Part shown: piece after piece, positions 28,134 through 44,161 of the stretch
How positions within the stretch are numbered: the stretch's first letter is position 1
Layout of the letters: each line of letters begins with the position of its first letter
Origin: Smithella sp. PtaU1.Bin162
Lineage (GTDB): Bacteria > Desulfobacterota > Syntrophia > Syntrophales > Smithellaceae
Length of the DNA stretch: 64,000 nucleotides
NCBI GenBank assembly: GCA_002068015.1
Contig: MVRV01000039.1
Location: 755-64,754, forward strand
Direction: 5' to 3'
Position numbers and translations under genes: made by a program
The notes under the pieces: generated by a model
Seen by the model: only the letters and a program-made list of their open reading frames with translations
The model's database searches: none
Told to the model about the DNA's origin: nothing

Positions 28134-28144
28134 TATAATGTCTC

Positions 28145-29305: not shown

Positions 29306-29318
29306 GACGATATCCTTC

Positions 29319-29817: not shown

Positions 29818-30008
29818 TATCTTTAATGATATTAATTTCCCAAGCTTAAAATTGGTAAAGAATGCCGTAAAGAATTAAGGTGGTAACTTAAATAATTATT
29901 AATCAATCAATGTAAAAAATAATTTGACAATAACCAAATGATTATGATTATAATCAATATATAGATAGTCAATATAAAAAATGCAACTATAAAGGAGGTG
30001 CCTGCTTC

Positions 30009-30401: not shown

Positions 30402-30422
30402 AAAATATGGGAGGAATTATAT

Positions 30423-31538
30423 ATGTTGGAGTTTAATAATTTTGTCACAGCCGGTAAATTTTTCCTGGTTATTGCCGGTGAGCTTATTCTGATATTTGTT
30501 GCCGTTTCCTTTCTCATTGGACTGCTGACGGAATATCTTCCCCCGTCACGCATCAGAGATTTTTTGTCCAATAAGTTTATCTGGGTGCAATACTTTCTGG
30601 GCGCTGGTCTGGGTGCTATCACACCGTTTTGCTCCTGCTCGACCGTCCCGATCACAGCCGGACTGTTAAAAGGAGGCGTCCCTTTCGGACCCGTCATGGC
30701 CTTTCTTTTTTCCTCGCCGGTTTTGAATCCCGTCATTGTTGCGCTGTTGTTCTCGCTTCTTGGTTATAAAGTTACCTTGATTTATGTCGTTGTCACTTTC
30801 ATCGGTTCCATTACAATGGCGGCGTTACTTTCAAAAATGAGAATGGAAAATCAGGTTAAGTCACTGATTGGTATGGAATCTTCCTGCTGTGGTCAAGCGG
30901 CAAAACCGGATGGTGGAGCCGTGAAATCAGTTGCAGATCCCACGGGTTGCTGTTTTTCCGGCGCCGCCTCACCCGTAACCCTGATCACCCTGCCGACAAT
31001 TCAGGCAGCAGGTAGTTGTTGTGCGAGCAAAGAACCGCCGGTTATGCAAAAGGCTGACCAATCGTCCTGCTGTGCCGTCAGCTTCGATGCGAACACAGGA
31101 AGCGAATCAGAGCGGGTTCCCTTTAAAGAAAAGATGAAAAGAGCATCATTGTCCGCAATCGACACATTCAAGGGAGTGTTCTGGTATCTTCTCCTCGGTG
31201 CCGGGATAGGGGCTTTTATCTATGGATTTTTCCCGCAGGACCTTGTTGTTCAATTGGCGGGGCCGGGAAATCCCTGGTCCATTCCGATCGCAGCGGTTAT
31301 TGGCGTGCCTATGTACATCCGGGCAGAGACCATCATTCCTATAAGTGCTGCATTGGTAGGCAAGGGCATGGGGGTGGGAACAGTTCTTTCCCTTATCATC
31401 GGCGGGGCGGGGGCAAGCATCCCGGAGATCATTATTCTCAGTTCCATGTTCAAAAAGAAACTGATCTTCGCCTTCGTGCTGAATGTTTTTCTGGTCGCAA
31501 TTGTAGCCGGTTATATTGTGAATATTCTCGTTTATTAA
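30423..31538 (+). CDS. ArsP-like/UPF0718 (PF03773-type) permease with a Cys-pair-rich central loop
   Basis: TPFCSCSTVP motif in an early TM helix. The central soluble loop (about nt 30870-31130) contains SSCCGQ, TGCCFS, GSCCAS and SSCCAV. 371 aa and polytopic. Confidence 0.8.
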   Translation: MLEFNNFVTAGKFFLVIAGELILIFVAVSFLIGLLTEYLPPSRIRDFLSNKFIWVQYFLGAGLGAITPFCSCSTVPITAGLLKGGVPFGPVMAFLFSSPVLNPVIVALLFSLLGYKVTLIYVVVTFIGSITMAALLSKMRMENQVKSLIGMESSCCGQAAKPDGGAVKSVADPTGCCFSGAASPVTLITLPTIQAAGSCCASKEPPVMQKADQSSCCAVSFDANTGSESERVPFKEKMKRASLSAIDTFKGVFWYLLLGAGIGAFIYGFFPQDLVVQLAGPGNPWSIPIAAVIGVPMYIRAETIIPISAALVGKGMGVGTVLSLIIGGAGASIPEIIILSSMFKKKLIFAFVLNVFLVAIVAGYIVNILVY

Positions 31539-31569
31539 TTGAATAAGTCCAATAGTTGGAAAATAATTA

Positions 31570-31598
31570 TTGACAATAATGTTACGAGGCAATACATT
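31570..31598 (+). promoter_or_regulatory. Candidate sigma70 promoter of the arsR-acr3 operon
   Basis: TTGACA (31570-31575), a 17-nt spacer, then TACATT (31593-31598). AATGT-N11-ACATT dyad within the spacer/-10 region. Confidence 0.45.
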
Positions 31599-31627
31599 CC
31601 TAAAAAAGAATATAAGGAATTGGCCAT

Positions 31628-31975
31628 ATGGATAAATTTATTAAAGTAATGAAAGCATTGTCTGATCCAAATCGGGTTAGATTGATAAAGATATTGCAGA
31701 AAAGAGCACTATGCGTTTGTGAAATACAGGCTCTGTTTGAGATGGCTCAGCCGACCGTATCCAAGCACATGAAGTTAATGGAACAGGCAGGATTGGTAAA
31801 AGGAAATAAAGATGGCCTATGGGTGAATTATACGGCCGCTCACGGAAGCGATAATCCCTATGCGGCTAGTATTTTGGGCAATCTCCAACATTGGTTATCA
31901 GATGATGTAGTGTTTAAAAAAATGGAGAAAAAATTGCCGGAAATTAAAAGGGAAAATATTTGTAAGAAAAGCTAG
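31628..31975 (+). CDS. arsR: ArsR/SmtB family repressor with the canonical CVC metalloid site
   Basis: ALSDPNRVRLIKIL..RALCVCEIQALF..PTVSKHMKLMEQAGLV. The LCVCE motif matches the As(III)-binding ELCVCDL-type site. Confidence 0.88.
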   Translation: MDKFIKVMKALSDPNRVRLIKILQKRALCVCEIQALFEMAQPTVSKHMKLMEQAGLVKGNKDGLWVNYTAAHGSDNPYAASILGNLQHWLSDDVVFKKMEKKLPEIKRENICKKS

Positions 31976-32015
31976 AATATTCTAATATTGTAATATAGCA
32001 AGGGGATTTGCGCAA

Positions 32016-32519
32016 ATGGATAATAAGACCATGCAGATTCAGGTGGGAGGCCGACTGACGGGCGTGGTCGGTCTGGAAAGTATACTTGCCGACGTTGCGC
32101 AATGGGCAAAAGGGAAAGAAGAAGCGGAAATCATGGTGGAGCTTCTCAGGCAAGTCGAAGTACGAAACTATATTCCTTCAAAAATTAACGAAATTTATGG
32201 GAAAGCCTTGTTGCGCGAATATAAAAAGTATTTGGGTGAAGCCGTCGAAGAAGAGGCAGTTGCCGGTTTGCAGGTTGTGATATTGGGGCCGGGTTGCGTC
32301 CAGTGCTCGTCTTTGGAATTACGCCTGCGGGATGTTATGGCCGAAATGAATCTGGCCGGCGATTTGACGCATATTACCGACGCGAATGATATCGCCCGAT
32401 ATGGTGTCATGGGAACTCCCGCGCTGATCATCAACGGAAAGGTCGTTGCCGTGGGCATTGTCCCGGAGAAGAAAAAAATCCAAGCCTGGCTCTCGGATGC
32501 CGTTGCGAAAATGGCGTAA
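32016..32519 (+). CDS. Thioredoxin-family protein: unknown N-terminal domain fused to a Thioredoxin_3 / redox-active disulfide protein 2 domain
   Basis: C-terminal half GPGCVQC...YGVMGTPALIINGKVV matches the small Trx-like family. I do not recognise the Cys-free N-terminal 80 aa or so. Confidence 0.7.
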   Translation: MDNKTMQIQVGGRLTGVVGLESILADVAQWAKGKEEAEIMVELLRQVEVRNYIPSKINEIYGKALLREYKKYLGEAVEEEAVAGLQVVILGPGCVQCSSLELRLRDVMAEMNLAGDLTHITDANDIARYGVMGTPALIINGKVVAVGIVPEKKKIQAWLSDAVAKMA

Positions 32520-32588
32520 TATCATGTTTCACGAATCATTATAGATACGCCGAAGTTAATATGACATGAAATCAGAAAGGAATTCATT

Positions 32589-33716
32589 ATGACAAAAAAA
32601 GCCCCGAAAATTTCAGAGCAGAATCTGCCACAATCAGGACCGAAGCGTCTAAATGTGTTTGAACGTTACCTCACGGTCTGGGTGTTGATCTGCATGGTCA
32701 TTGGCGTTGCTTTGGGTAAATTCCTTCCTGAGATTACAGCATCGCTCAGTGCAATGGAATTCGGAAAAGGATCTCAGGTCAATGTGCCTATTGCTATTCT
32801 TATCTGGCTGATGATTTTCCCCATGATGCTGAAGATTGACTTTGGGTCTTTAGGCAGCATTGCGCGTAAGCCCAAGGGACTGTTGATTACATTATTCGTC
32901 AACTGGTTGATTAAGCCTTTCAGCATGGCATTTTTGGCATGGCTGTTCATTCAGAATATTTTTTCTCTCTGGATTGATCCGGAAACCGCTAAAAGTTATA
33001 CTGCCGGTCTCATTATTCTTGCAGCTGCGCCCTGCACTGCCATGGTGTTTGTGTGGTCATACCTGACTGACGGTGACCCGGCCTACACGCTGGTTCAAGT
33101 GGCGGTAAACGACCTTATCATGCTGGTTGCATTTGCGCCGATTGTCATGTTTCTTCTTGGTGTGGCTGATGTTGTTGTCCCTTCCAAAGTATTGATTACG
33201 TCTGTTGTTGTATTTATTGTGATACCCTTGGTGGCAGGATTCATCACCAGGACTGTTTTGCTGAAAAAATACGGTACCAATTGGTTTGAGACTAAATTCC
33301 TGTCCAAGTTTCATCCCGTGACTGTAATTGCACTGCTTCTGACGCTTTTGCTTATCTTTGCTTTTCAGGCGGAAAATCTTACGACCAAATGGATCGCGGT
33401 TATCCTGATTGCCATTCCCATTTTGATTCAGGTTTATTTTAACTCCAGCCTTACCTATCTGCTCATGCGGTTGTTTAAGGTTCAACACAATGTGGCGTCT
33501 CCGGGTGCACTTATAGGAGCCAGCAATTTTTTTGAGCTTGCAGTAGCCGTGGCAATTACGCTTTTCGGGCCGAGTTCCGGCGCGGCGCTGGCCTGCGTAG
33601 TAGGCGTGCTGGTGGAAGTGCCGGTGATGTTGTCGGTCTGTACAATCTGTAACCGATCACAGGGCTGGTATAATCGAACGTTCCCTGCAAAAACAATGAA
33701 TGTGTGTGAAAAATAG
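32589..33716 (+). CDS. acr3: Arsenite efflux transporter, ACR3 family
   Basis: LNVFERYLTVWVLICM N-terminus. Signature ILAAAPCTAMVFVW. About 10 TM helices. Confidence 0.92.
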   Translation: MTKKAPKISEQNLPQSGPKRLNVFERYLTVWVLICMVIGVALGKFLPEITASLSAMEFGKGSQVNVPIAILIWLMIFPMMLKIDFGSLGSIARKPKGLLITLFVNWLIKPFSMAFLAWLFIQNIFSLWIDPETAKSYTAGLIILAAAPCTAMVFVWSYLTDGDPAYTLVQVAVNDLIMLVAFAPIVMFLLGVADVVVPSKVLITSVVVFIVIPLVAGFITRTVLLKKYGTNWFETKFLSKFHPVTVIALLLTLLLIFAFQAENLTTKWIAVILIAIPILIQVYFNSSLTYLLMRLFKVQHNVASPGALIGASNFFELAVAVAITLFGPSSGAALACVVGVLVEVPVMLSVCTICNRSQGWYNRTFPAKTMNVCEK

Positions 33717-33881
33717 CAATTATGAAGATGTTAAAAATGAATAAACAGAGCGAAGATTTACAAAACGTTTGTGCCAATTCTCGGTCGAAGAAAGCTTTCA
33801 GAATGCTTGGCGGTCTTAAGGAAGGTAAGGGAGATTGCGCCGCAACGGCGGAAAAATATAAGGAAGAATGGGGAAAACATA

Positions 33882-34130
33882 ATGACGGATAAAGAAATAC
33901 TGATTTACGGCACCGATACTTGCCCTTTTTGCAAGCAGGCACGTGCGGCCTACGGGGACAGGGCTGTCTTTATCAATGTGGAGAAGGACGAAGCAAAACT
34001 AAGCGAAATGCTGGCCTTATCAGGCGGCAGAAGACAGGTGCCGGTGATTGTGGAAGACGATAAGGTGACGGTCGGGTTTGCAGGAGAGGTATCGCTCCGT
34101 GGCGGGATACCACTGTTCGGTGGTACCTGA
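33882..34130 (+). CDS. Glutaredoxin-like protein (CPFC active site)
   Basis: MTDKEILIYGTDTCPFCKQA...RRQVPVIVEDDKV is a Grx fold. Start chosen at the ATG at 33882. Confidence 0.8.
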   Translation: MTDKEILIYGTDTCPFCKQARAAYGDRAVFINVEKDEAKLSEMLALSGGRRQVPVIVEDDKVTVGFAGEVSLRGGIPLFGGT

Positions 34131-34187
34131 TCTGTATGAAGTCTCTCGTGCAGAGATTATAAAGAAATGACAGAAGGAGATAAAGTG

Positions 34188-34483
34188 ATGTTTGAAGTAA
34201 CAGAAGAAGCAAGCCGTATGTTGAAAGACTTTCTGACCAAGCAAAAAAGCACAAAAGCCATCCGAATTATGATGCAAACCGGCTGAGGCAGGCCCAAACT
34301 GGGCTTGGCTATGGATAAGCCGCAGGATAACGACGTTACATTTAAGGTTCAGGATATTACATATCTCGTTGAAAAAAAATATTTGATCAAGCCAAACCGA
34401 TTAAGATCGATTTCGTTAAGTCCTTTATGAGGTCGGGATTTCAACTGACGTCAAGCCTCCCTGCGGGAGGCGGGTGCTGTTGA
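34188..34483 (+). CDS. HesB/IscA-like selenoprotein candidate (in-frame TGA at 34284-34286; the reading frame must shift -1 in the A8 run at 34372-34379)
   Basis: Translation is MFEVTEEASRMLKDFLTKQKSTKAIRIMMQTG-U-GRPKLGLAMDKPQDNDVTFKVQDITYLVEKK, then in the -1 frame IFDQAKPIKIDFVKSFMRSGFQLTSSLPAGGGCC. It aligns by eye with IscA: SGCSG matches TGUGR and LDFVKEG..GF matches IDFVKSF..GF. AAGGAGA Shine-Dalgarno sequence upstream. Not in the ORF track because of the TGA. Confidence 0.6.
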
Positions 34484-34735
34484 AACGGTTTTATGCGTAG
34501 GTTCTATTTCTAAAAACTCCAATTCCAAAAATGAAGCGCATAACTTGATAACCTGAATTTCACACGAGGTCACAAGTCGGAATTGGTTATTCGAATTGCC
34601 CCTTATAAGCGCGGATATAATTACCAGCAGCTTGCTGGTAAATCTATTTCCGAAGCGTGCGTTGGGATTTATACCAGCGATTCAGAGGCGCCGGACAGTC
34701 ATGACTGGTGCCATTTAATTTTTAAAAAAAAGTGA

Positions 34736-34772
34736 TTGACAGGTAATGGCTATTTGGCTAAATGACCAAATA
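34736..34772 (+). promoter_or_regulatory. Candidate promoter and ArsR operator of the second ArsR operon
   Basis: TTGACA (34736-34741). Dyad TATTTGG-N8-CCAAATA (34751-34757 and 34766-34772) overlaps the likely -10 (TAAATG, 34759-34764). Confidence 0.45.
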
Positions 34773-34791
34773 GCATAAAGGATAAAAACAG

Positions 34792-35124
34792 ATGGAAAGT
34801 TACGTAAAGCCTCAGCATGAGGCGCGGGCAAAAATTATCAAGGCCATGGCACACCCCAGCCGGCTGTTTATTATTGAGGAACTAAGTAAACATGAACGTT
34901 GCGTGGGAGAGCTGACGGAAATGATCGGATCCGATGCTTCGACCGTGTCCAAACATTTGAGTGTTTTGAAGAATGCGGGCCTGGTGACCGATGAGAAACG
35001 GGGGAATTCCATTTACTACAGCCTGCGCGTTCCTTGCATCATGCAATTTATGGGATGTGTGGAGGATGTGTTGTCCGCCAATGCGAAACAACACAATGCG
35101 ATTTTAAAATGCTGTAAGGGCTGA
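34792..35124 (+). CDS. ArsR/SmtB family regulator with C-terminal Cys cluster (CVG instead of CVC; C-terminal KCCKG)
   Basis: AMAHPSRLFIIEELSKHERCVGELTEM..STVSKHLSVLKNAGLV. C-terminal VPCIMQFMGC...ILKCCKG. Confidence 0.88.
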   Translation: MESYVKPQHEARAKIIKAMAHPSRLFIIEELSKHERCVGELTEMIGSDASTVSKHLSVLKNAGLVTDEKRGNSIYYSLRVPCIMQFMGCVEDVLSANAKQHNAILKCCKG

Positions 35125-35228
35125 GCGGCGGGCTGATGTATTGGTGCGTAAAAATAAAAAAATAGTTGCAATAAGCGTCTTGGAAAAAATAAGCAAATCA
35201 TTATCCTAAAAGTTAAGGAGAGATAAAT

Positions 35229-35465
35229 ATGAAAATAGAGATTCTGGGTGTGGGTTGTGCGAAGTGTCACAAATTGGAAGAGCTCGTTCGGGCGGTCGTT
35301 GGTGATACGGGAGTTAGTGCGGAAATCATCAAGGTCGAGGACATTAAAAAAATCATGGGATATGGCGTAATGACAACGCCGGCGCTGGTGATTGACGGCG
35401 AAGTCAGAATCGCCGGTAAGATGCCGACGACGGATCAAGTCAAAAGTTGGCTTACCGTCAAATAA
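35229..35465 (+). CDS. Small thioredoxin-like protein (redox-active disulfide protein 2 family)
   Basis: MKIEILGVGCAKCHKL...YGVMTTPALVIDGEV. 78 aa. Confidence 0.85.
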   Translation: MKIEILGVGCAKCHKLEELVRAVVGDTGVSAEIIKVEDIKKIMGYGVMTTPALVIDGEVRIAGKMPTTDQVKSWLTVK

Positions 35466-35527
35466 TTTTAGCAAAATGAATGATGAACTTAACGATACTG
35501 CAATTCTTTTAGAAAGGAGATTAATTT

Positions 35528-35944
35528 ATGGCTGAATGTTGTGGGTCTGGAACAAAATTAATTTATGCGTGTTCTGGTGCTGCAGATGTTGGCGAGATTG
35601 CCGACAGGGTAACGAGAAAACTGCGCAAAGAGGGAGATTTTCTGATGACATGTCTTGCTGGTATTGGTGCAGGATTATCAGGCTATGTCCAATCGGCAAA
35701 AGGCGCTGATGAAAATATCACTATTGACGGATGTCCGGTAGCCTGTGCGCGAAAAACACTGGAGAGGATAGGCGTAACGCCGACATCGTATATTTTAACA
35801 GATCTGGGACTTGTTAAGGGAGAAAGCCCCGTTTCGGAAAAAATAGTTGACCTGATGTGTGAAAAAATTAAAAAGGCCAAGGGTTCTAAAACGGTGCAGG
35901 AAAGAACAATAACCGGCGGCTGCGGTTGCGGCGGAAAATGCTAG
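35528..35944 (+). CDS. DGC-domain putative zinc/metal-binding protein
   Basis: ACSGAADVG..., IDGCPVACA (the DGC motif). N-terminal MAECCGSG and C-terminal GGCGCGGKC. Confidence 0.7.
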   Translation: MAECCGSGTKLIYACSGAADVGEIADRVTRKLRKEGDFLMTCLAGIGAGLSGYVQSAKGADENITIDGCPVACARKTLERIGVTPTSYILTDLGLVKGESPVSEKIVDLMCEKIKKAKGSKTVQERTITGGCGCGGKC

Positions 35945-36022
35945 ATACCTTTCGTAAATCAGGATTTGTGATCCAGAATTCAGGATAGCATCATCATGCA
36001 AATATTAAGGAGATTGTTACAC

Positions 36023-36445
36023 ATGAAATTGCGGTTAAAAGTAATGGGGATTTTAGTGTTACTGGCTGTATTTACACTTGTCCTTCTTTCGGCGAACTGC
36101 GGCAAAGCGCTTGCGCAGGATAAAACCGGCAAATCCACTGTCTCGAGGCCGTCCGTTTTTACGCCGCTGGTGACATTTGTTGAAATCGGTGCGGCCAGTT
36201 GTATTCCCTGTAAGGCCATGCAGCCGATCATGAAAGCTGTGGCAGAGGAATACAAGGGACAGGTCAAGGTTGTTTTTCACGATGTCTGGACGCAGCAAGG
36301 GAAGATTGATGCCGAAAAATATAATATTCGCGTGATTCCTACTCAGGTATTCCTCGATGTCAGCGGCAAGGAATACTACAGGCACGAAGGGTATTTCCCG
36401 AAAGAGCAGGTTGTTCAAGTTCTGAAAAAGGGAGGGGTTAAATAA
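36023..36445 (+). CDS. Secreted thioredoxin-fold protein (CIPC active site)
   Basis: Signal peptide MKLRLKVMGILVLLAVFTLVLLSA. Trx motif GAASCIPCKAM. AAGGAG Shine-Dalgarno sequence 8 nt before the ATG at 36023. Confidence 0.8.
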   Translation: MKLRLKVMGILVLLAVFTLVLLSANCGKALAQDKTGKSTVSRPSVFTPLVTFVEIGAASCIPCKAMQPIMKAVAEEYKGQVKVVFHDVWTQQGKIDAEKYNIRVIPTQVFLDVSGKEYYRHEGYFPKEQVVQVLKKGGVK

Positions 36446-37159
36446 ATGCTGGTTGACCTCTTTACCTCTCTCACTGCAGCCCTGACACAGTCACCTGGAA
36501 TCGCTATTGGCGCGGCGTTTGCCTGGGGCATACTATCGGTTATCCTTTCGCCCTGCCATATTGCGTGTATTCCCTTGATTGTGGGCTTCATCGACGGCCA
36601 GGGCGATATTACCACGCGACGGGCATTTGGTCTTTCACTTCTTTTCGGATTAGGGATTCTCATTACCATCGGCCTTATCGGCCTTATCACCGGCCTGGCG
36701 GGTCGGATGATGGGAGATATTGGAGGCTATGGAAATTATGTTGTAGCAATCGTCTTCTTTGCGATTGGTCTCAATTTACTGGGCATTTTGCCGCTGCCCT
36801 TTATGGAAGGTGGCGCGAATCCCAATTATAAAAGAAAAGGTTTTCTTGCGGCGTTTATTCTGGGGCTGATATTCGGCGTTGCCCTGGGGCCCTGCACATT
36901 TGCTTACATGGCGACGATGCTGGGCGTGGTGTTCAGTATGGCGGGAACGCAGTTGATGCTGGCGATGTTGATTCTGGCCGCGTTTGCTGTCGGCCACTGT
37001 TCGGTGCTGGTTTTTGCAGGCACTTTCACGGAAGTCGTGCAGCACTACCTGCACTGGAGTGAAAAGTCGAAGGGTGCCGTTATTTTAAAAAAGATATGCG
37101 GCGTACTGGTTATTTTAGGCGGTGTTTACTTAATTGCGCTGAATTTTATGCAAAGATAA
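36446..37159 (+). CDS. ccdA: CcdA/DsbD-family transmembrane thiol:disulfide electron transporter
   Basis: Six TM helices, with the two conserved Cys in LSPCHIACIPL and LGPCTFAYM. Confidence 0.85.
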   Translation: MLVDLFTSLTAALTQSPGIAIGAAFAWGILSVILSPCHIACIPLIVGFIDGQGDITTRRAFGLSLLFGLGILITIGLIGLITGLAGRMMGDIGGYGNYVVAIVFFAIGLNLLGILPLPFMEGGANPNYKRKGFLAAFILGLIFGVALGPCTFAYMATMLGVVFSMAGTQLMLAMLILAAFAVGHCSVLVFAGTFTEVVQHYLHWSEKSKGAVILKKICGVLVILGGVYLIALNFMQR

Positions 37160-37162
37160 CGG

Positions 37163-37329
37163 ATGAAAAGAATGGTTTTGTTCTTATGTACAGCCAATCC
37201 CTGCCGTTTGCAGATGGCCTAAGGTATTGCCAACTACTTTCGGGGCGACACAAGACCTTTTCTGCGGGAACTAAAGCTTCGTTTGTTAACTCGACGGCTG
37301 ATGATGGCTTTGAAGAAGTTCTGAAATAG
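37163..37329 (+). pseudogene. arsC: Decayed LMW-PTP-type arsenate reductase (arsC) remnant
   Basis: The ATG at 37163 gives MKRMVLFLCTANPCRLQMA-stop(TAA)-GIANYFRGD, which contains a CX5R P-loop as in ArsC (ICTGNSCRSQMAEG). A shifted frame continues ..FSAGTKASFVNSTADDGFEEV (compare [21 protein letters not shown]) and ends at 37329. Only about the first 60 codons remain. Confidence 0.5.
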
Positions 37330-37351
37330 TGCTGGATGAAGAGCATGGATT

Positions 37352-38395
37352 ATGACGGGCTTCACGACAATGATTAGAAAATATCGTCACATTCTCACCA
37401 TTGCGCTGGCGCTAGCCGGCATTGGGATCATGGCCTACTACGACTACTGCGATACGGCCTGCAGCTATCTCAGAGGCGATATCTGCGGCATTGATCTCAA
37501 GTGGGTGGGGATGGCGTTTATGGCGGCGGTGATTGTTTTTGCCGCGTTTAAACAGACTGCTTTTGTCCGGATGTTTCTGGCTGCCGGCCTGGGTGTGGAA
37601 GTGCATTTGTATGCCTTTCAGTTACAAAACGACGTCTATTGTCCGTTTTGTCTGGCCTTTTCGGTGCTACTGATTGCATCATTTGTCGTTAATTATGAAG
37701 TCCCCTCTGCGTGGCGGGGAGACCGTCGCCGGATGTGGCTCTATTTTCTCGGAGAGGTGAATTTTCCTATGTTTAAGATAAATAAGTTGCCCCTGTTACT
37801 GATCAGCGTGCTTGCCTACCTGTTAATTTTGGTGACGTTTAACGGATCAGTTACACCCGCCTACGGGCAGGAGCCGATAAAAGGCATTCCTGCACTGGGT
37901 AAAGGCCCCTATGAGATCATTATATTTGCCGACTACTTCTGCCCGCCTTGCCGCAGGATAGATACGAAAGCTGAACCTCTGTTTAAGGAAATATTGGTAA
38001 CTGGGCAAGTGCAGCTGGCATTTATTGATGTTCCTTTTGCCAGTGCGGCGCCTGTTTATGCCAAGTATTACCTTTATGCGGTCAATGCCGATCCGGGTGT
38101 AAACAATGTTTTTCACGTGCGCAGGGTACTTTTCAATGCGGCGCAGGATAAACGCATACAAAAGGAAAATGCTTTAATTGACTATCTTAAGGAGCAGAAT
38201 ATCAAATGGTTGGCTATGGATGAAAAGTCTGTTTTTCCGCTTCTCAGCGCTTCTATAAAAGAACATAAAGTTGACACTACGCCGACCTGTTTTATTAAAT
38301 ATTCTAAAGACAATGTTAAAAAATATGTTGGCGATGACAAGATATGGGAGGGCTTGACCCAATTCAAGGATCATCTGTTGACGCAGAAAAAATAG
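37352..38395 (+). CDS. VKOR-like membrane domain fused to a DsbA-like thioredoxin domain
   Basis: Loop cysteines YCDTACSYLRGDIC and an intramembrane CPFC fit a VKOR pattern. An extra TM helix is followed by a periplasmic domain with FADYFCPPC. Confidence 0.7.
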   Translation: MTGFTTMIRKYRHILTIALALAGIGIMAYYDYCDTACSYLRGDICGIDLKWVGMAFMAAVIVFAAFKQTAFVRMFLAAGLGVEVHLYAFQLQNDVYCPFCLAFSVLLIASFVVNYEVPSAWRGDRRRMWLYFLGEVNFPMFKINKLPLLLISVLAYLLILVTFNGSVTPAYGQEPIKGIPALGKGPYEIIIFADYFCPPCRRIDTKAEPLFKEILVTGQVQLAFIDVPFASAAPVYAKYYLYAVNADPGVNNVFHVRRVLFNAAQDKRIQKENALIDYLKEQNIKWLAMDEKSVFPLLSASIKEHKVDTTPTCFIKYSKDNVKKYVGDDKIWEGLTQFKDHLLTQKK

Positions 38396-38455
38396 TTGCG
38401 GCAAGATTTGAGGGAAATATCAAATATAAGATCATTGCTCGAGGATGGTGCTTTG

Positions 38456-39112
38456 ATGCAGGTTAACTGTTCTAAATTTATTTATGTTTTAGTAAATATG
38501 CTGTGCATCTTTATACTGTGCGCTGCGTTGACCCGTCCGACTCAAGCCGCCGAAAATGCACCTGTTTTCTCCTACGGTTCAGGTCCTTATGAGCTTATCG
38601 TTTTCTCGGATTATTTTTGTGCGCCCTGCCAGAAGATGGAAAAGGAATTGGACAAAATCATTTCCGGGATGATTGAGCGGGGAGGTGTCAGGGTCACTTT
38701 TGTTGATCTTCCCATATATAAGCTGACGCCGCTTTACGGTACTTATTTCTTGTATGTCTTAAATGCGGCACCAACTTACGCGGAAGCTTTGCGGGCCAGG
38801 CGCTTGCTGTTCGAAAAGGCTTCACGCATCGGCGCTATTACGGACAAACATTTGGAAACCGCCCTGCAGGCGGCAAACATACCTGTTAAGCCCTATGACA
38901 TTAAGCAATCTTTGGTCAGGTACAAAGATATGATCAGGAAGTATAAGATTCGTTCGACACCGACCTTCGTTTTCATCTATTCGTCAACAGACATCCGCAA
39001 ATATTCGAAAAGTGAAGCGATCAGGAAAGGAATGGTGGAACTGGCAAAGTCGATTGAAGAACGGGGAAATAATTCTTGTAAAAGCTGCAATTCGATGGAT
39101 ATTCCCCGATGA
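38456..39112 (+). CDS. Secreted DsbA-like thiol:disulfide oxidoreductase (paralog of the C-terminal domain of the preceding gene)
   Basis: Signal peptide, then GSGPYELIVFSDYFCAPC; compare GKGPYEIIIFADYFCPPC in the upstream gene. ATG at 38456 follows GAGGATGG. Confidence 0.75.
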   Translation: MQVNCSKFIYVLVNMLCIFILCAALTRPTQAAENAPVFSYGSGPYELIVFSDYFCAPCQKMEKELDKIISGMIERGGVRVTFVDLPIYKLTPLYGTYFLYVLNAAPTYAEALRARRLLFEKASRIGAITDKHLETALQAANIPVKPYDIKQSLVRYKDMIRKYKIRSTPTFVFIYSSTDIRKYSKSEAIRKGMVELAKSIEERGNNSCKSCNSMDIPR

Positions 39113-39169
39113 CCTGCACAGTGGCAAAAATAGTATTGATAAAAAATTGCAATATTAAGGAAATAAATT

Positions 39170-40342
39170 ATGAAAGAATGGCAAAAAATTTTATTAATCG
39201 TGGCAATATTCTTAGGTGCTTACTATATTCCCTGGGAGGCTGCAATTGTACGGCAGTCCGGTCTCGAAGCCTTTATGATGCTGCAGGAATATGCCCGCCA
39301 GCATGTATTGACGTGCCTGATTCCTGCGTTTTTCATTGCCGGGGCTATTACCGTCTTCGTTTCACAGGCTTCGGTTCTTAAATATTTCGGGGCGAAGGCC
39401 AATAAGATTCTGTCCTATTCGGTCGCTTCCGTTTCCGGTTCGGTGCTGGCGGTATGCTCCTGCACAGTGCTGCCTTTATTTGCCGGTATCTACACGCGCG
39501 GTGCGGGAATCGGCCCGGCAACGGCTTTTCTTTATTCCGGCCCGGCCATCAACGTGCTCGCGATAATACTTACAGCCAAAGTGCTGGGCTGGCAATTGGG
39601 AGTTGCCCGTGCAGTCGGTGCGGTGATTTTTGCCGTTGTGACGGGTTTGTTGATGGCCTTTATCTTCCGTAAGGACGATGCCAATCGTCAAACCGGTGAA
39701 ATCTTTCTGCCGGAGGAAGAGAAAACGGTAAGAACGCTGGGGCAGGATGGTCTCTATATGCTGACAATGGTGCTGATTCTTGTTTTTGCATCGTTTGCCC
39801 GGCCTTCTGAAAGTGACGGCGCACTGTGGCGATTTATTTTCAGCGCCAAATGGTATCTGACGGTTTTATTGCTGATAATTTTGGCCGTAATGCTCAAAAA
39901 ATGGTTTGTGAAAGAAGAACTTCGTTTCTGGATGGAAGCCACCTGGACTTTTTCCAAACAAATTCTGCCGCTTTTGTTCGGTGGCGTACTGGTTGCAGGA
40001 TTTCTTCTGGGGCGGCCCGGCTATCCGGCACTGATTCCGGAGACCGCTATTCAAACTCTCGTCGGGGGAAATTCGCTTGGGGCTAATTTCTTTGCTTCCA
40101 TCGTTGGTGCGCTCATGTATTTTGCCACGCTCACCGAAGTTCCGATTCTTCAGGGTTTAATTGGTTCCGGAATGGGGCAGGGGCCGGCCTTGGCGCTGCT
40201 TCTGGCCGGTCCGGCTCTATCGTTGCCCAATATGATTGCGATTGCCGGTATCATGGGCATCAAGAAAACAGTTGTTTACTGTACTATCGTGGTGATCCTT
40301 TCGACGATTTCCGGTATGATTTACGGCTGGTTAATGGGGTAG
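39170..40342 (+). CDS. ArsP-like/UPF0718 (PF03773-type) permease, second copy
   Basis: 390 aa and polytopic. AVCSCTVLP motif at the position equivalent to the CSC of the 30423 permease. No Cys-rich loop. Confidence 0.8.
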   Translation: MKEWQKILLIVAIFLGAYYIPWEAAIVRQSGLEAFMMLQEYARQHVLTCLIPAFFIAGAITVFVSQASVLKYFGAKANKILSYSVASVSGSVLAVCSCTVLPLFAGIYTRGAGIGPATAFLYSGPAINVLAIILTAKVLGWQLGVARAVGAVIFAVVTGLLMAFIFRKDDANRQTGEIFLPEEEKTVRTLGQDGLYMLTMVLILVFASFARPSESDGALWRFIFSAKWYLTVLLLIILAVMLKKWFVKEELRFWMEATWTFSKQILPLLFGGVLVAGFLLGRPGYPALIPETAIQTLVGGNSLGANFFASIVGALMYFATLTEVPILQGLIGSGMGQGPALALLLAGPALSLPNMIAIAGIMGIKKTVVYCTIVVILSTISGMIYGWLMG

Positions 40343-40401
40343 ATTTGGGTGCCGGCAAAAAACTTCGTTTTGAATTTACGTCGGAACCTTTACTTCTAAT
40401 G

Positions 40402-40574
40402 CTTGGGTAATCATGTAAAAAATGATTATACCAAGTCGTATTCAAACGCTAACTTTGTTGGCAACATTGTCGGCTCATTGCCCGGCGCATGCAGGGTCCT
40501 CAACGTATGTATAATACGCCTCGTCGCCTCCGCCTTGCCGCCGCGTTATCATTTTGAATGCAACTTGGTATAAT
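40402..40574. repeat. Nested inverted repeats (MITE-like element or enhancer sites)
   Basis: attataccaagtcgtattcaaa (40425-40446) is the reverse complement, at 20/22 positions, of tttgaatgcaacttggtataat (40553-40574). There is an additional local dyad: cttgggtaatcat (40402-40414) with atgattataccaag (40422-40435). Confidence 0.6.
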
Positions 40575-40728
40575 TCCGTGGAACCCTTATTTTCTGGATA
40601 TAAAGGAATCAACTGAATACCAGAAATGAATACAAAGTATCCAGTCCAGTTTCATAGACCATCTGTAATTTTATTGATCTTTTAAAATTCTCATATTATT
40701 ACAGTACCTTAACTCATTAAGACGATGT

Positions 40729-40743
40729 TGGCACGAGCTTTGC
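40729..40743 (+). promoter_or_regulatory. Sigma54 (-24/-12) promoter
   Basis: TGGCAC-GAGCT-TTGC matches the TGGCAC-N5-TTGC consensus exactly. It lies about 55 nt upstream of the ATG at 40797. Confidence 0.75.
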
Positions 40744-40796
40744 TGTATCACATGTTAACTTTAAAAAATAAAAAAACTCTGGAAGGGAGACTAATT

Positions 40797-41306
40797 ATGA
40801 AAAAGTTAACATTAGCAGTTATGGCCATTGCACTTGGTGTGCTCTTAACACAACCGGCTTTTGCCGCTTTCGGTAAAGCCAGAGGTCAGGGAAACGGACA
40901 GGGGTATTCTCAGAATGCTGCCTGTGACAGATTGAATCTTTCTGCTGAGCAGAAAACAAAAATAGAAGCATTGCGGACTGCTCATGATAAAGAACTAAGA
41001 CCGGTGAGAGAAAAGATGTTTGACAAGTCGGTCGAACTGCGCAGATTGTGGAGGCAGGCCAATCCGGATAAGGATAAAATCACTGCCGTCCAAAAAGAAT
41101 TGAACAGCCTGCGCAGTGAAAAACAAAATAAAGTTACGGCCAAACGCCTGGAAATCCGTAACGTGCTTACACCTGAACAGAAGGAAAAGCTGGCTACTTT
41201 CGGCGGAGGCAGAGGAGATGGTTTTGGCCAGGGTCGTGGAATGCAGGGCCAGCGTGGTGGTATGAGAGGCCAGGGCGGCGGTTTCGGAATGGGAATTTGC
41301 CGGTAA
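40797..41306 (+). CDS. Periplasmic Spy/CpxP/ZraP-family protein (LTxxQ repeats, Gly/Gln/Arg-rich tail)
   Basis: Signal peptide MKKLTLAVMAIALGVLLTQPAFA. LSAEQKTKIEAL and LTPEQKEKLA motifs. GGAAGGGAG Shine-Dalgarno sequence. Confidence 0.75.
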   Translation: MKKLTLAVMAIALGVLLTQPAFAAFGKARGQGNGQGYSQNAACDRLNLSAEQKTKIEALRTAHDKELRPVREKMFDKSVELRRLWRQANPDKDKITAVQKELNSLRSEKQNKVTAKRLEIRNVLTPEQKEKLATFGGGRGDGFGQGRGMQGQRGGMRGQGGGFGMGICR

Positions 41307-41330
41307 ATATATCTTTACCTCCTTTTTGAC

Positions 41331-41364
41331 GGGGGAAGCATTAGTCAGGCTTCCCCCTTTTTTT
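41331..41364 (+). terminator. Rho-independent terminator
   Basis: gggggaagc (41331-41339) pairs with gcttccccc (41349-41357), followed by T7. Confidence 0.85.
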
Positions 41365-41478
41365 AATTTCATCGACAAACTAACAATTTACATTTAAAAT
41401 AATTCGAAAAGAGATGTTGCCGGTTCATTTTTAGCAGGTGGATTTATTATTGAGAAATTTTTATCGGGAGGTTGAAAT

Positions 41479-42180
41479 ATGGCTTTGATTAAAGCAAAAA
41501 ACATCAGCAAGGATTACCAAACGGAAGATGTGGTGGTTCACGCTCTTCAGGAGGTGAACTTTGAAATAGAACCCGCCTCCTTCGTTTCATTTGTCGGGCC
41601 TTCAGGAAGCGGCAAGACGACTATTCTCAACATCATCGGTTGCCTGGACAAACCGTCGGCGGGAGAGTTGATGGTTGCCGATACGGAAGTCGCGTTGCTG
41701 GGCAGAAAAGAAAGCGCCTCCTTCCGGGGGAAGCATCTTGGTTTTATCTTTCAGGATTTCAATCTTATTCCCGTGTTGACGGTTTATGAAAATATCGAGT
41801 ATCCGCTCATTATGGTCCAAAACATTGAGCCTGCCGAACGCAGGGAAAGAATTTCCAGAATGCTGGTATCCGTGGGTATGAAGGACCAGGGAGATAAATA
41901 CCCTCAACAAATTTCAGGAGGGCAGAAGCAGCGGGTGGCGGTAGCGCGGGCGCTGGTAACACATCCGGCGCTTGTACTGGCCGATGAACCGACGGCCAAT
42001 CTGGATTCCCAAACTGCCTACGCGGTTATCGGACTCATGAAAAAAATGCGTGATGATTTCGGTACGACGTTTATCTTTTCTACTCACGATACCAAAATCG
42101 TTGGTGAGGCGGAAGTAATCTTTCGTTTGGAAGACGGCAAATTGAAAGCAAAGGAAATAAAAGGAGGTATAAAGCAATGA
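41479..42180 (+). CDS. ABC transporter ATP-binding protein (LolD/MacB-type)
   Basis: Walker A GPSGSGKTT, signature SGGQKQRVAVARAL and Walker B LVLADEPT. Confidence 0.92.
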   Translation: MALIKAKNISKDYQTEDVVVHALQEVNFEIEPASFVSFVGPSGSGKTTILNIIGCLDKPSAGELMVADTEVALLGRKESASFRGKHLGFIFQDFNLIPVLTVYENIEYPLIMVQNIEPAERRERISRMLVSVGMKDQGDKYPQQISGGQKQRVAVARALVTHPALVLADEPTANLDSQTAYAVIGLMKKMRDDFGTTFIFSTHDTKIVGEAEVIFRLEDGKLKAKEIKGGIKQ

Positions 42181-43412
42181 AAAATATTTTTAAAATTGCC
42201 GTCCGCAATCTTATCCGTTATAAAAGAAGAACATTGCTTACGGCATCACTCATTACCATCGGCGTTGTTTTTGTTCTGGTCTTTGTTTCCGTAACCGGTT
42301 CGTTTAAGTCAATAATGATCGGCGAGGTCACTGATTCCATGCTGGGACATCTACAGGTGCATCGTAAAGGATACGTTGCTTCCATTGACAGTCTTCCCCT
42401 GAATCTGAATATGAAACCCAAGGCCTATGCAAAAATGGCTGAAACGCTGAAATCGTCACCGGATGTGGAAGCCTTTTCCCCCCGCCTTAAATTCGGCGGT
42501 ATGTTCAGCAACTTCACCGAGACGACCAGCATTCGTATCAACGGTATCTATCCCGACCGGGAGTTTCAAACTGTTCCCCTTCTGACATCGCGCATATCAG
42601 AAGGCAAAAAAACCATCAGCCGCGGTGAAATAATGATTCCGCTGCTTCTGGCACGTGGTTTGAAAATAAAAATCGGCGATGCGGTTGTTGTTGTGGCAAC
42701 GAATGTTGATGGATCAGTAAACGGCAAGCAGTTTATTGTTTCGGGCATTCTGGAGAGCGCCACCGGACCCGGCGGACGTGACGGATATGTTCACATCGAA
42801 GATGCTGCCGAAGTACTGCGTATGACCGAGCTGGAAGTAAGTGAAGTGGCTGTTCGCCTGAAAGATTTCAATCATCTGCATCCGGTAATGCAGCAGTTGG
42901 AGGGTAAAATTGCCGCCGAGCTAAACAAAGAGGGAAAGCCTTTATTCGAAGTGCATTCCTGGGAACAGCTTTCTCCCTTCTTCAATATCGCCAAAATGAT
43001 TGATGTAATGACTTTTTTCATCAAGATAATGCTTATCGCCATTGTTCTTATCAGTATTATGAATGTGATGATTATGGCGGTATTCGAACGTATTCGCGAA
43101 ATCGGTACGATTGCTGCGATCGGAACACTGCCCGGCAAAATACGTTCCATGTTCATAATTGAAGGATTATGTCTGGGGGTCGTGGGTACTGTGATTGGTG
43201 ACATTATCGGTGGAATCATTATCCTGATCATCAATCTAACCGGCATCCGTTACAATTTCGGTCGTCAGGAACTACTGCTCCATGCCGATATTCTTCCCGC
43301 TGATGTGTTGACGATCTCTATCATTGTCATTATTGTTGCCGTAGCGGCCAGTCTGCAGCCGGCGATCAAGGCATCCAAAATGGAACCGATCGAAGCTTTG
43401 CGTCATGTTTAA
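42177..43412 (+). CDS. ABC transporter permease, FtsX/LolCE-like
   Basis: 411 aa. One TM helix, a large periplasmic domain, then 3 TM helices with an FtsX-type C-terminus (KMEPIEALR). Confidence 0.88.
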   Translation: MKNIFKIAVRNLIRYKRRTLLTASLITIGVVFVLVFVSVTGSFKSIMIGEVTDSMLGHLQVHRKGYVASIDSLPLNLNMKPKAYAKMAETLKSSPDVEAFSPRLKFGGMFSNFTETTSIRINGIYPDREFQTVPLLTSRISEGKKTISRGEIMIPLLLARGLKIKIGDAVVVVATNVDGSVNGKQFIVSGILESATGPGGRDGYVHIEDAAEVLRMTELEVSEVAVRLKDFNHLHPVMQQLEGKIAAELNKEGKPLFEVHSWEQLSPFFNIAKMIDVMTFFIKIMLIAIVLISIMNVMIMAVFERIREIGTIAAIGTLPGKIRSMFIIEGLCLGVVGTVIGDIIGGIIILIINLTGIRYNFGRQELLLHADILPADVLTISIIVIIVAVAASLQPAIKASKMEPIEALRHV

Positions 43413-43429
43413 GCCTAAAGGAGAATAAT

Positions 43430-44161
43430 ATGATTAAAAAAATATTGCTGATTTGTCTGTTGATTGTATCCATGTCCTCTCCCGTCTTTGCCGTGGACGG
43501 TAAGGCACTCTTGGAACAGGTGGACAGAAACCTTTCACCAGAATCGTACGAATCCTATCGAAAGCTCATCAATATCGAACCATCCGGTGCGAAAAAAGAA
43601 TTCACTCTTTTCACCGTTAAAAAGGGCGTGGATAAAGTTGCCTCACTGTTTATTGCTCCGGCCAGCGAAAAAGGCAGAAGTACGCTTAGACTTGGCGACA
43701 ACATGTGGCTCAATATTCCCAATGTCGGTAAACCCATTCGCATTACCAGCCTTCAGTCCGTTGTGGGCGGCGTCTTTAACAATGCCGATATTATGCAGCT
43801 CGACTATGCGGTGGAATACGATGTGGAGAAAATTGAAGAAGGTGCCGAATATCTTCTTTATCTGAAGGCGAAGACGAAAAGCGTAGCATATGACCGACTG
43901 AAAATATGGGTGAACAAGGATAAAAAGCTGCCGACCAGGATCGAGTGTTTAACGGAAGCCAATATGTTGATTAAAACACTTTATTTCAAGGACACTAAGG
44001 ATTTCGGAGGAGGAATAGTGCGGCCGGCGGTCATTGAAACGGACAGTCCGCTCTACAAGGGGTATAAATCCGTTATCATAATGGCCGGTGTGAAGAAACG
44101 CACCTTCAAAGATGAGGTTTTTACCCTGACATTTCTGCCCAACCTGGAGTCCTTGCGATAG
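43430..44161 (+). CDS. LolA-like outer-membrane lipoprotein-sorting protein family
   Basis: Signal peptide. The sequence pattern (..MWLNIPNVGKPIRIT..., ..LKIWVNKD..LP) fits LolA_like-domain proteins that accompany FtsX ABC systems. Confidence 0.6.
   Translation: MIKKILLICLLIVSMSSPVFAVDGKALLEQVDRNLSPESYESYRKLINIEPSGAKKEFTLFTVKKGVDKVASLFIAPASEKGRSTLRLGDNMWLNIPNVGKPIRITSLQSVVGGVFNNADIMQLDYAVEYDVEKIEEGAEYLLYLKAKTKSVAYDRLKIWVNKDKKLPTRIECLTEANMLIKTLYFKDTKDFGGGIVRPAVIETDSPLYKGYKSVIIMAGVKKRTFKDEVFTLTFLPNLESLR

Follow-up and report, generated by a model that had tools for sequence, protein, structure and literature searches.

INTRODUCTION

Why should an operon headed by an ArsR-type repressor encode, side by side, proteins of the kind that keep cysteines of the cell envelope reduced and proteins of the kind that join them into disulfides? 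The question is raised by a cluster of eight genes in a 64,000-nucleotide stretch of DNA from the bacterium Smithella sp. PtaU1.Bin162 (GenBank assembly GCA_002068015.1, contig MVRV01000039.1, positions 755 to 64,754 of the forward strand), the whole of which we call the window. In order, the genes specify an ArsR/SmtB-family repressor, a small thioredoxin-like protein (Trx_3), a DGC-domain protein, a secreted thioredoxin (sTrx), a CcdA-type electron transporter, a VKOR-like membrane domain fused to a DsbA-like domain (‘the fusion’), a secreted paralog of the latter (DsbA2), and an ArsP_1-family permease (Table 1).

The answer we favor is that the cluster is an extended ars operon of the Smithella/Smithellaceae lineage, one that would protect protein folding in the envelope from the arsenicals the cell exports. 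We put the probability of this protective reading, taken as a whole, at about 0.5. That the cluster is an arsenic-linked derivative of an ars operon is a good deal firmer, and very likely correct; the specific logic of client protection is tentative, and somewhat short of an even bet. We read the cluster as an ars operon, and arsenic as its cue, because arsC and ACR3 genes are embedded in orthologous operons, and because the remnant of an arsC gene survives in the window itself.

RELATED OPERONS AND THE FATE OF arsC

A scan of one genome per species yielded 79 related loci (denoted by L-numbers), nearly all of them in metagenome-assembled genomes (MAGs) of Smithella, Smithellaceae and Syntrophaceae, together with one Nitrospirota MAG. 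Their synteny was established by tblastn of the window proteins against the loci, calling of open reading frames (ORFs), and clustering. The order that recurs is ArsR-Trx_3-(ArsP_1, TauE-like or ProC-like)-(DGC)-sTrx-CcdA-(ArsC)-(ACR3)-fusion-(DsbA2)-(secreted rhodanese)-ArsP_1, with the variable members in parentheses. Fifty-seven copies of the fusion gene have at least 5 kb of sequence upstream; 38 of these are accompanied by an ars marker, and 24 by CcdA and sTrx. Where both flanks are present (50 copies), ArsR, Trx_3, sTrx, CcdA and ArsP occur together in 12 instances, six of which include the DGC protein as well. A preliminary description of the locus had singled out its eight-gene order; the core of that order does recur in dozens of genomes, but the exact set of eight occurs only in contigs of this one genome (L001 and L002), the closest approaches elsewhere being L030, L067 and L074.

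In many relatives, arsC and ACR3 lie between CcdA and the fusion, with gaps that are typically 0–40 bp. Thus L067 reads, with gaps in bp, ArsR-9-Trx_3-40-DGC-10-sTrx-0-CcdA-10-ArsC-10-ACR3-(-4)-fusion, with ArsP farther on. The embedded ACR3 scores 455.5/282.8 bits with TIGR00832 (here and below, NCBIfam scores are given as bits/curated cut-off and Pfam scores as bits/gathering cut-off), and the relatives’ thioredoxin-type ArsC finds its best family in TIGR02691, at 144 bits, below the equivalog cut-off of 174. An intact arsC occupies the CcdA/fusion position in 16 related loci, and minimal ArsR-ACR3-fusion operons occur in L018, L031 and L034. Several orthologous operons have also acquired genes for a secreted rhodanese (c21, c40) and for TauE-type exporters, and in L030, L033, L037, L054, L067 and others, genes for a radical SAM/SPASM maturase, secreted rhodaneses and a cation diffusion facilitator (CDF) transporter often follow ArsP_1. 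The closest family to the maturase is TIGR04317, of tungsten-cofactor oxidoreductase maturases (304/380 bits).

The 192-bp gap that separates CcdA from the fusion in the window is what remains of this arsC gene. The peptide MKRMVLFLCTANPCRLQMA, ending at a stop codon and encoded at 37163–37249, is 65% identical over 29 aa to the N-terminus of the relatives’ ArsC (tblastn), and a second fragment (SAGT...VN...) is found in another frame; the remnant has suffered an in-frame stop, a frameshift and truncation. Because it fills the CcdA/fusion gap, we take the window operon to be derived from a form that contained ArsC and ACR3. Hg, As and Se species had all been put forward as possible substrates for this operon. 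As its cue, arsenic is the best supported, by the embedded ACR3 and arsC genes and by the remnant; Hg and Se are much less likely.

Might the redox genes simply provide electrons for arsenate reduction? In a SEED neighborhood survey that found CcdA and thioredoxin genes in ars operons—eight cases in seven organisms, seven of the eight with arsC—Castillo and Saier proposed as much (PMC2963123): Trx_3 or thioredoxin would reduce ArsC, with CcdA as an accessory. The association with arsC extends to the relatives of the window, and in the 16 loci just mentioned ArsC comes directly after CcdA. Yet ArsC has no signal peptide and the operon thioredoxin has one, so the proposal fails for sTrx, and CcdA is of the kind that moves electrons outward. 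It fails, too, for the window itself, which has lost arsC to decay and kept Trx_3, sTrx and CcdA intact; and it leaves the VKOR-DsbA arm unexplained. We strongly doubt that electron supply to ArsC accounts for the cluster.

GENE LAYOUT

All eight ORFs of the preliminary description lie in the window in the order and at the coordinates it gave, on the plus strand, and they carry the motifs it quoted. Their layout (ORF listing) is that of a tightly packed, co-directional cluster headed by a metalloid regulator, and both of the gene sets whose pairing had attracted attention, the reductive-type CcdA/sTrx arm and the oxidative-type VKOR-like/DsbA arm, are there. For seven of the eight domain calls the scores exceed the thresholds of Pfam or NCBIfam, but the VKOR family, PF07884, goes undetected in the window protein. 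Chance ORFs, considered as an explanation, were ruled out by the domain scores and by synteny. Hydropathy and AlphaFold2 (AF2) models reveal no hydrophobic segments in ArsR, Trx_3 or the DGC protein.

A terminator-like hairpin is present at 34621–34641, just upstream of the ArsR promoter. No such hairpin was found in the intergenic gaps of the operon by a promoter/terminator scan whose call counts are at the level of shuffled sequence, and co-transcription of the eight genes is plausible. An Rfam scan of positions 30000–42000 gave no match.

Table 1. Features of the cluster and their positions in the window
Feature	Position	Strand	Basis
Promoter and operator	34736..34774	+	Sequence reading and inverted-repeat search
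ArsR/SmtB-family repressor, 110 aa	34792..35124	+	PF01022 (HTH_5), NF033788
Trx_3, MTH895/ArsE family, CAKC	35229..35465	+	PF13192, TIGR00412
DGC-domain protein, cytoplasmic, cysteine-rich	35528..35944	+	PF08859
Secreted or membrane-anchored thioredoxin (sTrx), CIPC	35996..36445	+	PF00085
CcdA-type (DsbD transmembrane domain) thiol-disulfide electron transporter, six transmembrane segments	36446..37159	+	PF02683
arsC pseudogene remnant (thioredoxin-type)	37163..37330 (end approximate)	+	tblastn
VKOR-like domain of five transmembrane segments fused to DsbA-like domain	37352..38395	+	PF13462; VKOR via relatives only
Secreted DsbA-like paralog (DsbA2), CAPC	38396..39112	+	PF13462
ArsP_1-family permease, 390 aa	39170..40342	+	PF03773

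PROMOTER, OPERATOR AND REPRESSOR

The TATTTGG-N8-CCAAATA dyad noted earlier in front of the first gene is present, and is longer than described: it is a perfect 9-bp inverted repeat, GCTATTTGG-N8-CCAAATAGC, with arms at 34749–34757 and 34766–34774. It straddles a candidate –10 element, TAAATG (34759–34764), and begins 7 bp past a perfect –35 element, TTGACA (34736–34741); its TATTTGG core begins 9 bp past the same element. The dyad, with no more than two mismatches, and TTGACA are kept at a fixed spacing upstream of 30 of the 35 ArsR orthologs, where the dyads end ∼19 bp before the start codon and TTGACA lies 9 bp upstream of the dyad. In most relatives the sequence at the center of the dyad is TATATT, which is a –10 element with a spacing of 17 bp, where the window has TAAATG. 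A consensus promoter scan of the window did not call the ArsR promoter because the –10 element here is without its final T. Judged from these positions, a repressor bound to the dyad would occlude the –10 element. Given the conservation of the dyad in 30 of 35 orthologs and the recurrence of the gene order in dozens of genomes, the arrangement is far beyond what chance would produce.

The repressor itself (PF01022, 51.9/22 bits; NF033788, 89.7/55 bits) is a member of the ArsR/SmtB family with an operator at its own promoter, as is typical of ars operons. Over the 35 orthologs, C37, C82 and C89 are invariant. A KCC motif had been remarked upon, and it is present (...KCCKG), but its cysteine pair is less conserved than the other three, C108 being found in 31 of the 35 and C107 in 20. 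A weak similarity to BigR (48/155 bits; PDB 3pqj, 2.3e-9), together with cysteines near positions 37 and 108 and with the TauE-type and rhodanese genes of some relatives, could be taken to mean that this is a reactive-sulfur or thiol-oxidation stress operon under a two-cysteine redox sensor like BigR or SqrR. The invariant C82 and C89 and the frequent C107 misfit a two-cysteine model, however, and the genes embedded in the orthologous operons are ArsC and ACR3. We regard a reactive-sulfur operon as very improbable.

THE SMALL CYTOPLASMIC PROTEINS AND THE PERMEASE

Trx_3 matches PF13192 (99.2/24.8 bits) and, with a score above the curated cut-off (105/62 bits) and a CXXC active site (CAKC), it belongs to TIGR00412, which NCBIfam names ‘MTH895/ArsE’. 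The name ArsE stems from work on ArsEFG, according to a citation within PMC9144182. The DGC protein (PF08859, 93.8/27 bits) contains ten cysteines, among them an N-terminal CC and a C-terminal GGCGCGGKC; in its orthologs C15, C42 and C69 are invariant, and C4, C5, C73, C132 and C134 nearly so. A profile of this protein found no relative in the PDB. Fold matches to PTS IIB proteins, low-molecular-weight protein tyrosine phosphatase (LMW-PTP) and lumazine synthase were set aside, with E-values above 1e-3 for an AF2 model of pLDDT 57.

The permease is a clear member of PF03773 (ArsP_1; 255.9/32.3 bits), with a CSC motif inside a transmembrane (TM) segment. Its best NCBIfam matches, SaoE (114.5/325 bits) and the SO_0444 Cu/Zn efflux family (108.6/300 bits), fall below their cut-offs, and it is only 22% identical to the product of the other ArsP_1 gene in the window. 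In 21 of 64 loci the fusion has an ortholog of the permease, 78–89% identical, on its downstream side. The permease is of the ∼390-aa type, and the characterized methylarsenite exporter ArsP is ∼300 aa; ArsP of C. jejuni is such an exporter (review, PMC6205960). Types of ∼300 aa and ∼400 aa were distinguished in the survey of Castillo and Saier, neither with an assigned function (PMC2963123).

THE REDUCTIVE ARM

The secreted thioredoxin (PF00085, 41.5/23.5 bits) has a single N-terminal hydrophobic segment, residues 7–25; the JGI annotation has an alternative start at 36023, for a protein of 140 aa. In the window and in its relatives the stop codon of sTrx abuts the start of CcdA with a 0-bp gap. 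CcdA matches PF02683 (DsbD_TM; 43.5/27.1 bits) and has six hydrophobic segments. Cys37 and Cys41 are situated where TM1 ends and Cys150 where TM4 ends, which is the layout of a CcdA/DsbD transmembrane domain.

The preliminary description had conceded that the cluster could turn out to be a generic locus for cytochrome c maturation. It does not: the ccs/res genes are absent from the vicinity, and in all 24 loci with enough flank CcdA and sTrx are accompanied by ArsR, ACR3 or ArsC. We reject a cytochrome c maturation locus.

THE VKOR-LIKE/DsbA FUSION

In the fusion, which continues the cluster beyond the arsC remnant, the AF2 model has helices at residues 12–29, 49–65, 69–92, 98–114 and 148–162. 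The cysteines fall into three pairs: C33-X3-C37 in a loop, C97-P-F-C100 at the membrane, and C197-P-P-C200 in the DsbA-like domain; from the AF2 helices and the distribution of charge, both pairs of the membrane domain, as well as the DsbA-like domain, are placed outside the membrane. A four-helix core with a loop cysteine pair ahead of TM2, a CXXC at the start of TM4, and a fifth helix leading to a thioredoxin fold is the architecture of VKOR. This succession, from loop pair to CXXC at TM4, fifth helix and outward thioredoxin fold, is that of VKOR and the reverse of that in DsbB.

Direct profile evidence is harder to come by. PF07884 does not match the whole protein, nor, at E ≤ 10, the isolated N-terminal 175 aa. 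Among 76 relatives of the N-terminal domain, 47 match PF07884 at E ≤ 0.1, the best at 4.3e-9. When ten relatives were scanned singly, seven gave sub-threshold matches (14–22/27.5 bits) across profile positions ∼40–133 and three gave none. A profile of the 76 relatives run against PDB sequences found DsbA-type chains only, and no VKOR chain. With phmmer, 1.8 billion representatives yielded 127 related clusters (at 50% identity), some of them stand-alone proteins of ∼150–200 aa and others fusions of ∼310–350 aa. Among relatives down to 23% identity, C33, C97 and C100 are invariant and C37 is kept in at least 90%. Despite the failed direct profile test, a divergent VKOR-like domain is the best reading of the N-terminal half.

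Fusions of VKOR to thioredoxin-fold domains are familiar in bacteria, as in the VKOR of Synechococcus, and VKOR operates with DsbA in Mycobacterium tuberculosis. The window protein resembles these bacterial VKORs in TM1, the loop cysteine pair, TM2–3, the CXXC at the start of TM4, the fifth TM segment and the outward thioredoxin fold. It differs from them in its first periplasmic loop, which is only ∼18 residues long and contains C-X3-C, and in the missing PF07884 match.

The C-terminal half is on firmer ground. Its DsbA domain scores 42/23.2 bits with PF13462 (Thioredoxin_4), and its best structural matches (Foldseek) are ScsC, Wolbachia alpha-DsbA1, BdbD and DsbA, at E ∼1e-6; matches to the full-length model are dominated by this domain. 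The secreted paralog, DsbA2 (PF13462, 35.8/23.2 bits), has one N-terminal hydrophobic segment, an alternative JGI start at 38456 (218 aa), and 30% identity to the DsbA domain of the fusion. Both are DsbA-like: they match PF13462 and have CPPC and CAPC active sites, respectively, and an invariant T310-P311 is present in the fusion. The paralog is found in only a few related loci.

Homologs of the fusion number in the hundreds at 60–90% identity, and the fusion also occurs outside ars operons. One that is 37% identical lies within a conjugative type IV secretion system (T4SS) cluster (L083, 8001–8993), among genes for TraU, TrbC, a VirD4/TraG-type coupling protein, a lytic transglycosylase and a TrwC relaxase. 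Disulfide enzymes encoded on plasmids and serving secreted machinery are well known from conjugation clusters. Because it is present at loci without ars genes and in the conjugation cluster, the fusion looks like a portable, self-contained disulfide-forming module that is not specific to arsenic.

This bears on the suggestion with which the study of the locus began, that the two arms make up a periplasmic dithiol/disulfide cycle dedicated to one thiophilic small molecule, such as an As, Hg or Se species or a thioarsenical, on which it would act directly. A metalloid could, for example, be bound and released on CXXC motifs, pentavalent or thiolated species could be reduced outside the membrane, or cargo could be handed to or from the permease. 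CXXC or vicinal cysteine motifs do occur in every protein of the cluster, and the rhodanese and TauE-type genes of several orthologous operons hint at chemistry of sulfur, selenium or As–S species. Pseudodesulfovibrio mercurii ND132 makes unidentified thioarsenic species (10.1101/2022.10.17.512643), and the best NCBIfam neighbors of five of the proteins come from selenoprotein-containing operon families (SaoE, SaoT, TsoR, TsoB and Rcas_1661), all below cut-off. Both arms working on one substrate would, however, amount to a futile leak of electrons from thioredoxin to quinone, and the fusion family also appears in non-metalloid contexts, including the T4SS cluster, where a role in protein disulfides is obvious. 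We consider a dedicated cycle of this kind rather unlikely. The occurrence of the fusion at loci without ars genes and in the conjugation cluster fits the recruitment, by the operon, of a generic module for protein disulfides.

WEIGHING THE READING

Several observations count against the reading of the cluster as a protective ars operon. There is no ACR3 or ArsB gene within 34792–40342 (ACR3 is encoded in the adjacent upstream operon, at 32589–33716; 378/282.8 bits), and no functional arsC, only the decayed remnant. The gaps of 104 bp and 192 bp within the cluster could conceal internal promoters. The VKOR assignment draws on sub-threshold and transitive evidence. The nearest solved relatives of the repressor are Rv0081, NolR and SrnR, with no characterized As(III) sensor among them, so that the type of sensor is not assignable by homology, and the spacing of C37 and C108 in the window protein resembles that of persulfide sensors of the BigR/SqrR type. 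The fusion, moreover, occupies one chromosomal slot (divergent flavodoxin gene, fusion, then MFS/c10/c7) that contains no ars gene in L041, L043, L053, L057, L058 and L071, and it is found in two further non-ars contexts; some orthologs sit between NifX-like and PdaD genes. The link between fusion and ars genes could be partly historical.

The last of these points raises the possibility that the fusion and CcdA are a housekeeping disulfide system, a cytochrome c CcdA, or both, merely adjoining ars genes that were inserted beside a resident VKOR-DsbA. In L014, L018, L031 and L034 the same flavodoxin-fusion-MFS/c10/c7 slot has ArsR-(Trx_3-ArsP)-ACR3 just upstream. Its presence in some genomes and absence from others suggests that ars genes were repeatedly inserted, or lost, next to a disulfide oxidase gene already resident there. 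In some genomes (L018) the fusion is preceded by a gap of 149 bp. Elsewhere the packing is much tighter: the fusion begins 25–33 bp after ACR3, or overlaps it by 4 bp (L004, L005, L033, L037 and L067). Several genomes have a second copy of the fusion in another place (for example L022/L044 and L021/L055), as expected if the ars-linked copy were an extra one. Neither ccsBA nor resBC is nearby, and the 24 of 24 loci in which CcdA and sTrx keep company with ars markers speak against a chance neighborhood. A housekeeping system that simply adjoins ars genes is, in our judgment, quite improbable.

COMPARISON WITH KNOWN SYSTEMS

The operons surveyed by Castillo and Saier share with the window an ArsR head, a small Trx_3, a separate thioredoxin, CcdA and an ArsP_1-family permease; their description includes no VKOR-DsbA oxidase, second DsbA or DGC protein, whereas the window has all three. 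That no characterized system is known to combine these parts, as had been stated, needs qualification. The part made up of CcdA, thioredoxin, Trx_3 and ArsP_1 is published (PMC2963123), but a literature search, of limited extent, found no report of a VKOR/DsbA-type oxidase in an ars operon. A VKOR-DsbA arm inside an ars operon appears to be undescribed.

A second relative is operon C of P. mercurii ND132, ArsR5-ArsP-ArsE(PF13192)-DGC(PF08859), which RNA-seq found to be up-regulated by both As(III) and As(V) (Gionfriddo et al., 10.1101/2022.10.17.512643). Likened to the window cluster by family membership alone, it unites the same four families (ArsR, ArsP_1, Trx_3/ArsE and DGC) in a mercury methylator, and, unlike the window cluster, is without CcdA, sTrx or VKOR-DsbA. 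Its induction is the sole evidence on expression for a module of this kind. The pairing of Trx_3 with a permease had been described as lacking an assigned function; the arsenic induction of this operon, and the NCBIfam name MTH895/ArsE, qualify that statement.

The closest functional analog of the cluster is ScsABCD, a copper-induced envelope thiol system and a precedent for metal-specific redox maintenance in the periplasm (PMC7716197). In Salmonella, Proteus and Caulobacter, Scs is induced by metal stress, and its DsbD-type reductase feeds DsbA-fold and thioredoxin-like periplasmic proteins; the DsbA domain in the window has some of its best matches in ScsC structures (4gxz, 6nen, 5idr and 7rgv). 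Scs is purely reductive or isomerizing, regulated by CpxRA, linked to copper, and has no quinone-linked oxidase, whereas the window cluster is headed by ArsR and linked to arsenic. The window CcdA, too, is without the periplasmic domains of DsbD, so the cluster is not an Scs system and the analogy is one of function only.

Lastly, the Sao and Tso families of NCBIfam assemble the same types of part: in them, a regulator of ArsR type (TsoR) and an efflux transporter of ArsP_1 type (SaoE) are combined with a small protein resembling thioredoxin and a membrane domain of DsbD type. For several window proteins they are the best NCBIfam neighbors or nearly so, at scores far below cut-off (for SaoE as given above; TsoR, 42/115 bits; TsoB, 24/805 bits). 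Members such as SaoT, a thioredoxin-like (seleno)protein, and TsoB, a rhodanese/DsbD-like selenoprotein, have selenocysteine (Sec) where the window proteins have cysteine.

NEIGHBORING GENES AND hgcAB

The mercury-methylation genes lie on the minus strand, 5.4 kb upstream of the operon: hgcB at 27807–28133 (121.6/99 bits) and hgcA at 28145–29305 (480.5/275 bits; both NCBIfam). In the region 27807–29798 of that strand, a MarR-family gene is located directly upstream of hgcAB, and a gene for a QueG-like Fer4/HEAT protein follows hgcB. The same divergent hgcBA-MarR/ArsR arrangement is found in L005 (819–9032). In a Smithella MAG (L037, 2530–9032), hgcA and hgcB are inside the operon, in the order ArsR-hgcA-hgcB-Trx_3-ArsP-TauE-ACR3-fusion, and in the Nitrospirota MAG (L061, 7992–10663) the fusion is followed by hgcA and hgcB.

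Could the cluster be an accessory of mercury methylation, for uptake of Hg(II), exchange of thiol ligands, or export of methylmercury? Both hgc genes of the window pass their cut-offs, the three loci above place hgcAB beside or within related operons, and both a linkage of hgcAB with ars genes and arsenic-responsive regulation of hgcAB have been published (PMC7438021; 10.1101/2022.10.17.512643). Against this, hgcA is present within the 8-kb flanks in only 3 of the 79 other loci; the hgcAB genes of the window lie on the other strand, with their own MarR gene and two further operons intervening; and it is arsC and ACR3 that orthologous operons carry embedded within them. We think it highly unlikely that the cluster serves mercury methylation.

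Between hgcAB and the cluster, on the plus strand (30009–34130), are two further units of metalloid type, the first of a PadR gene and an ArsP_1 permease in which one loop has many vicinal CC pairs, and the second of ArsR, a Trx_3 with an 85-aa N-terminal extension, ACR3 and a glutaredoxin. Next comes a candidate gene for an IscA/HesB-type selenoprotein (34188–34484, plus strand), with an in-frame TGA at 34284–34286 (...MMQTG-U-GRPKLG...) and an apparent frameshift at a run of eight A residues, 34372–34379. With the frame corrected and U read as C, it scores 105/85 bits with NF038090 (IscA_HesB_Se). Either this is a genuine Sec gene and the assembly contains an error, or the gene has become a pseudogene.

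Downstream of the cluster (40725–46207, plus strand) follow genes for a CpxP/Spy/ZraP-like periplasmic protein, a MacB-type ABC ATPase, an FtsX permease, a LolA-like protein, a 433-aa protein and a probably secreted MsrB. The Spy-ABC-FtsX-LolA block comes after the cluster in L004 and L006 as well. A gene for a CpxP/Spy-like chaperone in this position fits a theme of envelope stress.

A POSSIBLE MECHANISM AND ITS MEANING

Our evidence consists of gene content, topology, the conservation of the operator, and the embedding of arsC and ACR3 in orthologous operons; from it we infer arsenic induction, the identity of the effector, the direction of electron flow, and the clients. If we read these signs correctly, events would run as follows. 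ArsR would repress its own operon by binding the dyad that overlaps the –10 element, and a trivalent arsenical, the probable effector, would release it and bring about derepression. Trx_3, the DGC protein and the ArsP_1 permease would handle and export a thiol-reactive trivalent arsenical, as the module of ND132 may do. Once outside, As(III) exported by ACR3 and ArsP would attack just those reduced CXXC or vicinal dithiols that the two pathways and their clients rely on in the periplasm, the thiols of the Dsb and Ccd machinery among them. By inducing spare capacity in both envelope thiol-redox arms together with the exporters, the operon would protect the folding of envelope proteins.

In the reductive arm of this scheme, electrons would pass from Trx_3 or TrxA to CcdA and on to sTrx, and periplasmic cysteines would be kept reduced or made so again; sTrx may also reduce the CAPC paralog, DsbA2, in the way that ScsB reduces ScsC. 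In the oxidative arm, the VKOR-like domain would use quinone to reoxidize the fused DsbA domain which, with DsbA2, would close disulfides in exported proteins. A bolder variant is that VKOR-DsbA, CcdA-sTrx, ArsP_1, Trx_3 and the DGC protein together constitute an arsenic-specific envelope pathway that makes or breaks As–S bonds: quinone-driven oxidation might strip As(III) from periplasmic dithiols, or thioarsenicals might be processed. We consider this unlikely. Were it true, it would connect the quinone pool of strict anaerobes with the detoxification of metalloids and, recurrently, with hgcAB.

The cluster does not amount to a system of an entirely new category, and some of what seemed novel in it is already in the literature. 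CcdA and thioredoxin genes in ars operons have been noted since 2010 without explanation; what is new here is that this lineage adds to that known, functionally unexplained type of operon an arm of the opposite kind, one that forms disulfides, together with a DsbA paralog. Its operons also come in dozens of natural variants, with and without arsC, ACR3, DGC, DsbA2 or rhodanese, and these make the question testable. The position of the cluster beside hgcAB, and in some relatives around it, bears on the unexplained link between arsenic and mercury methylation. And if the export of arsenic does need co-induced maintenance of envelope thiols, anaerobes would offer a new principle of metalloid resistance, one with a counterpart in Scs and copper.

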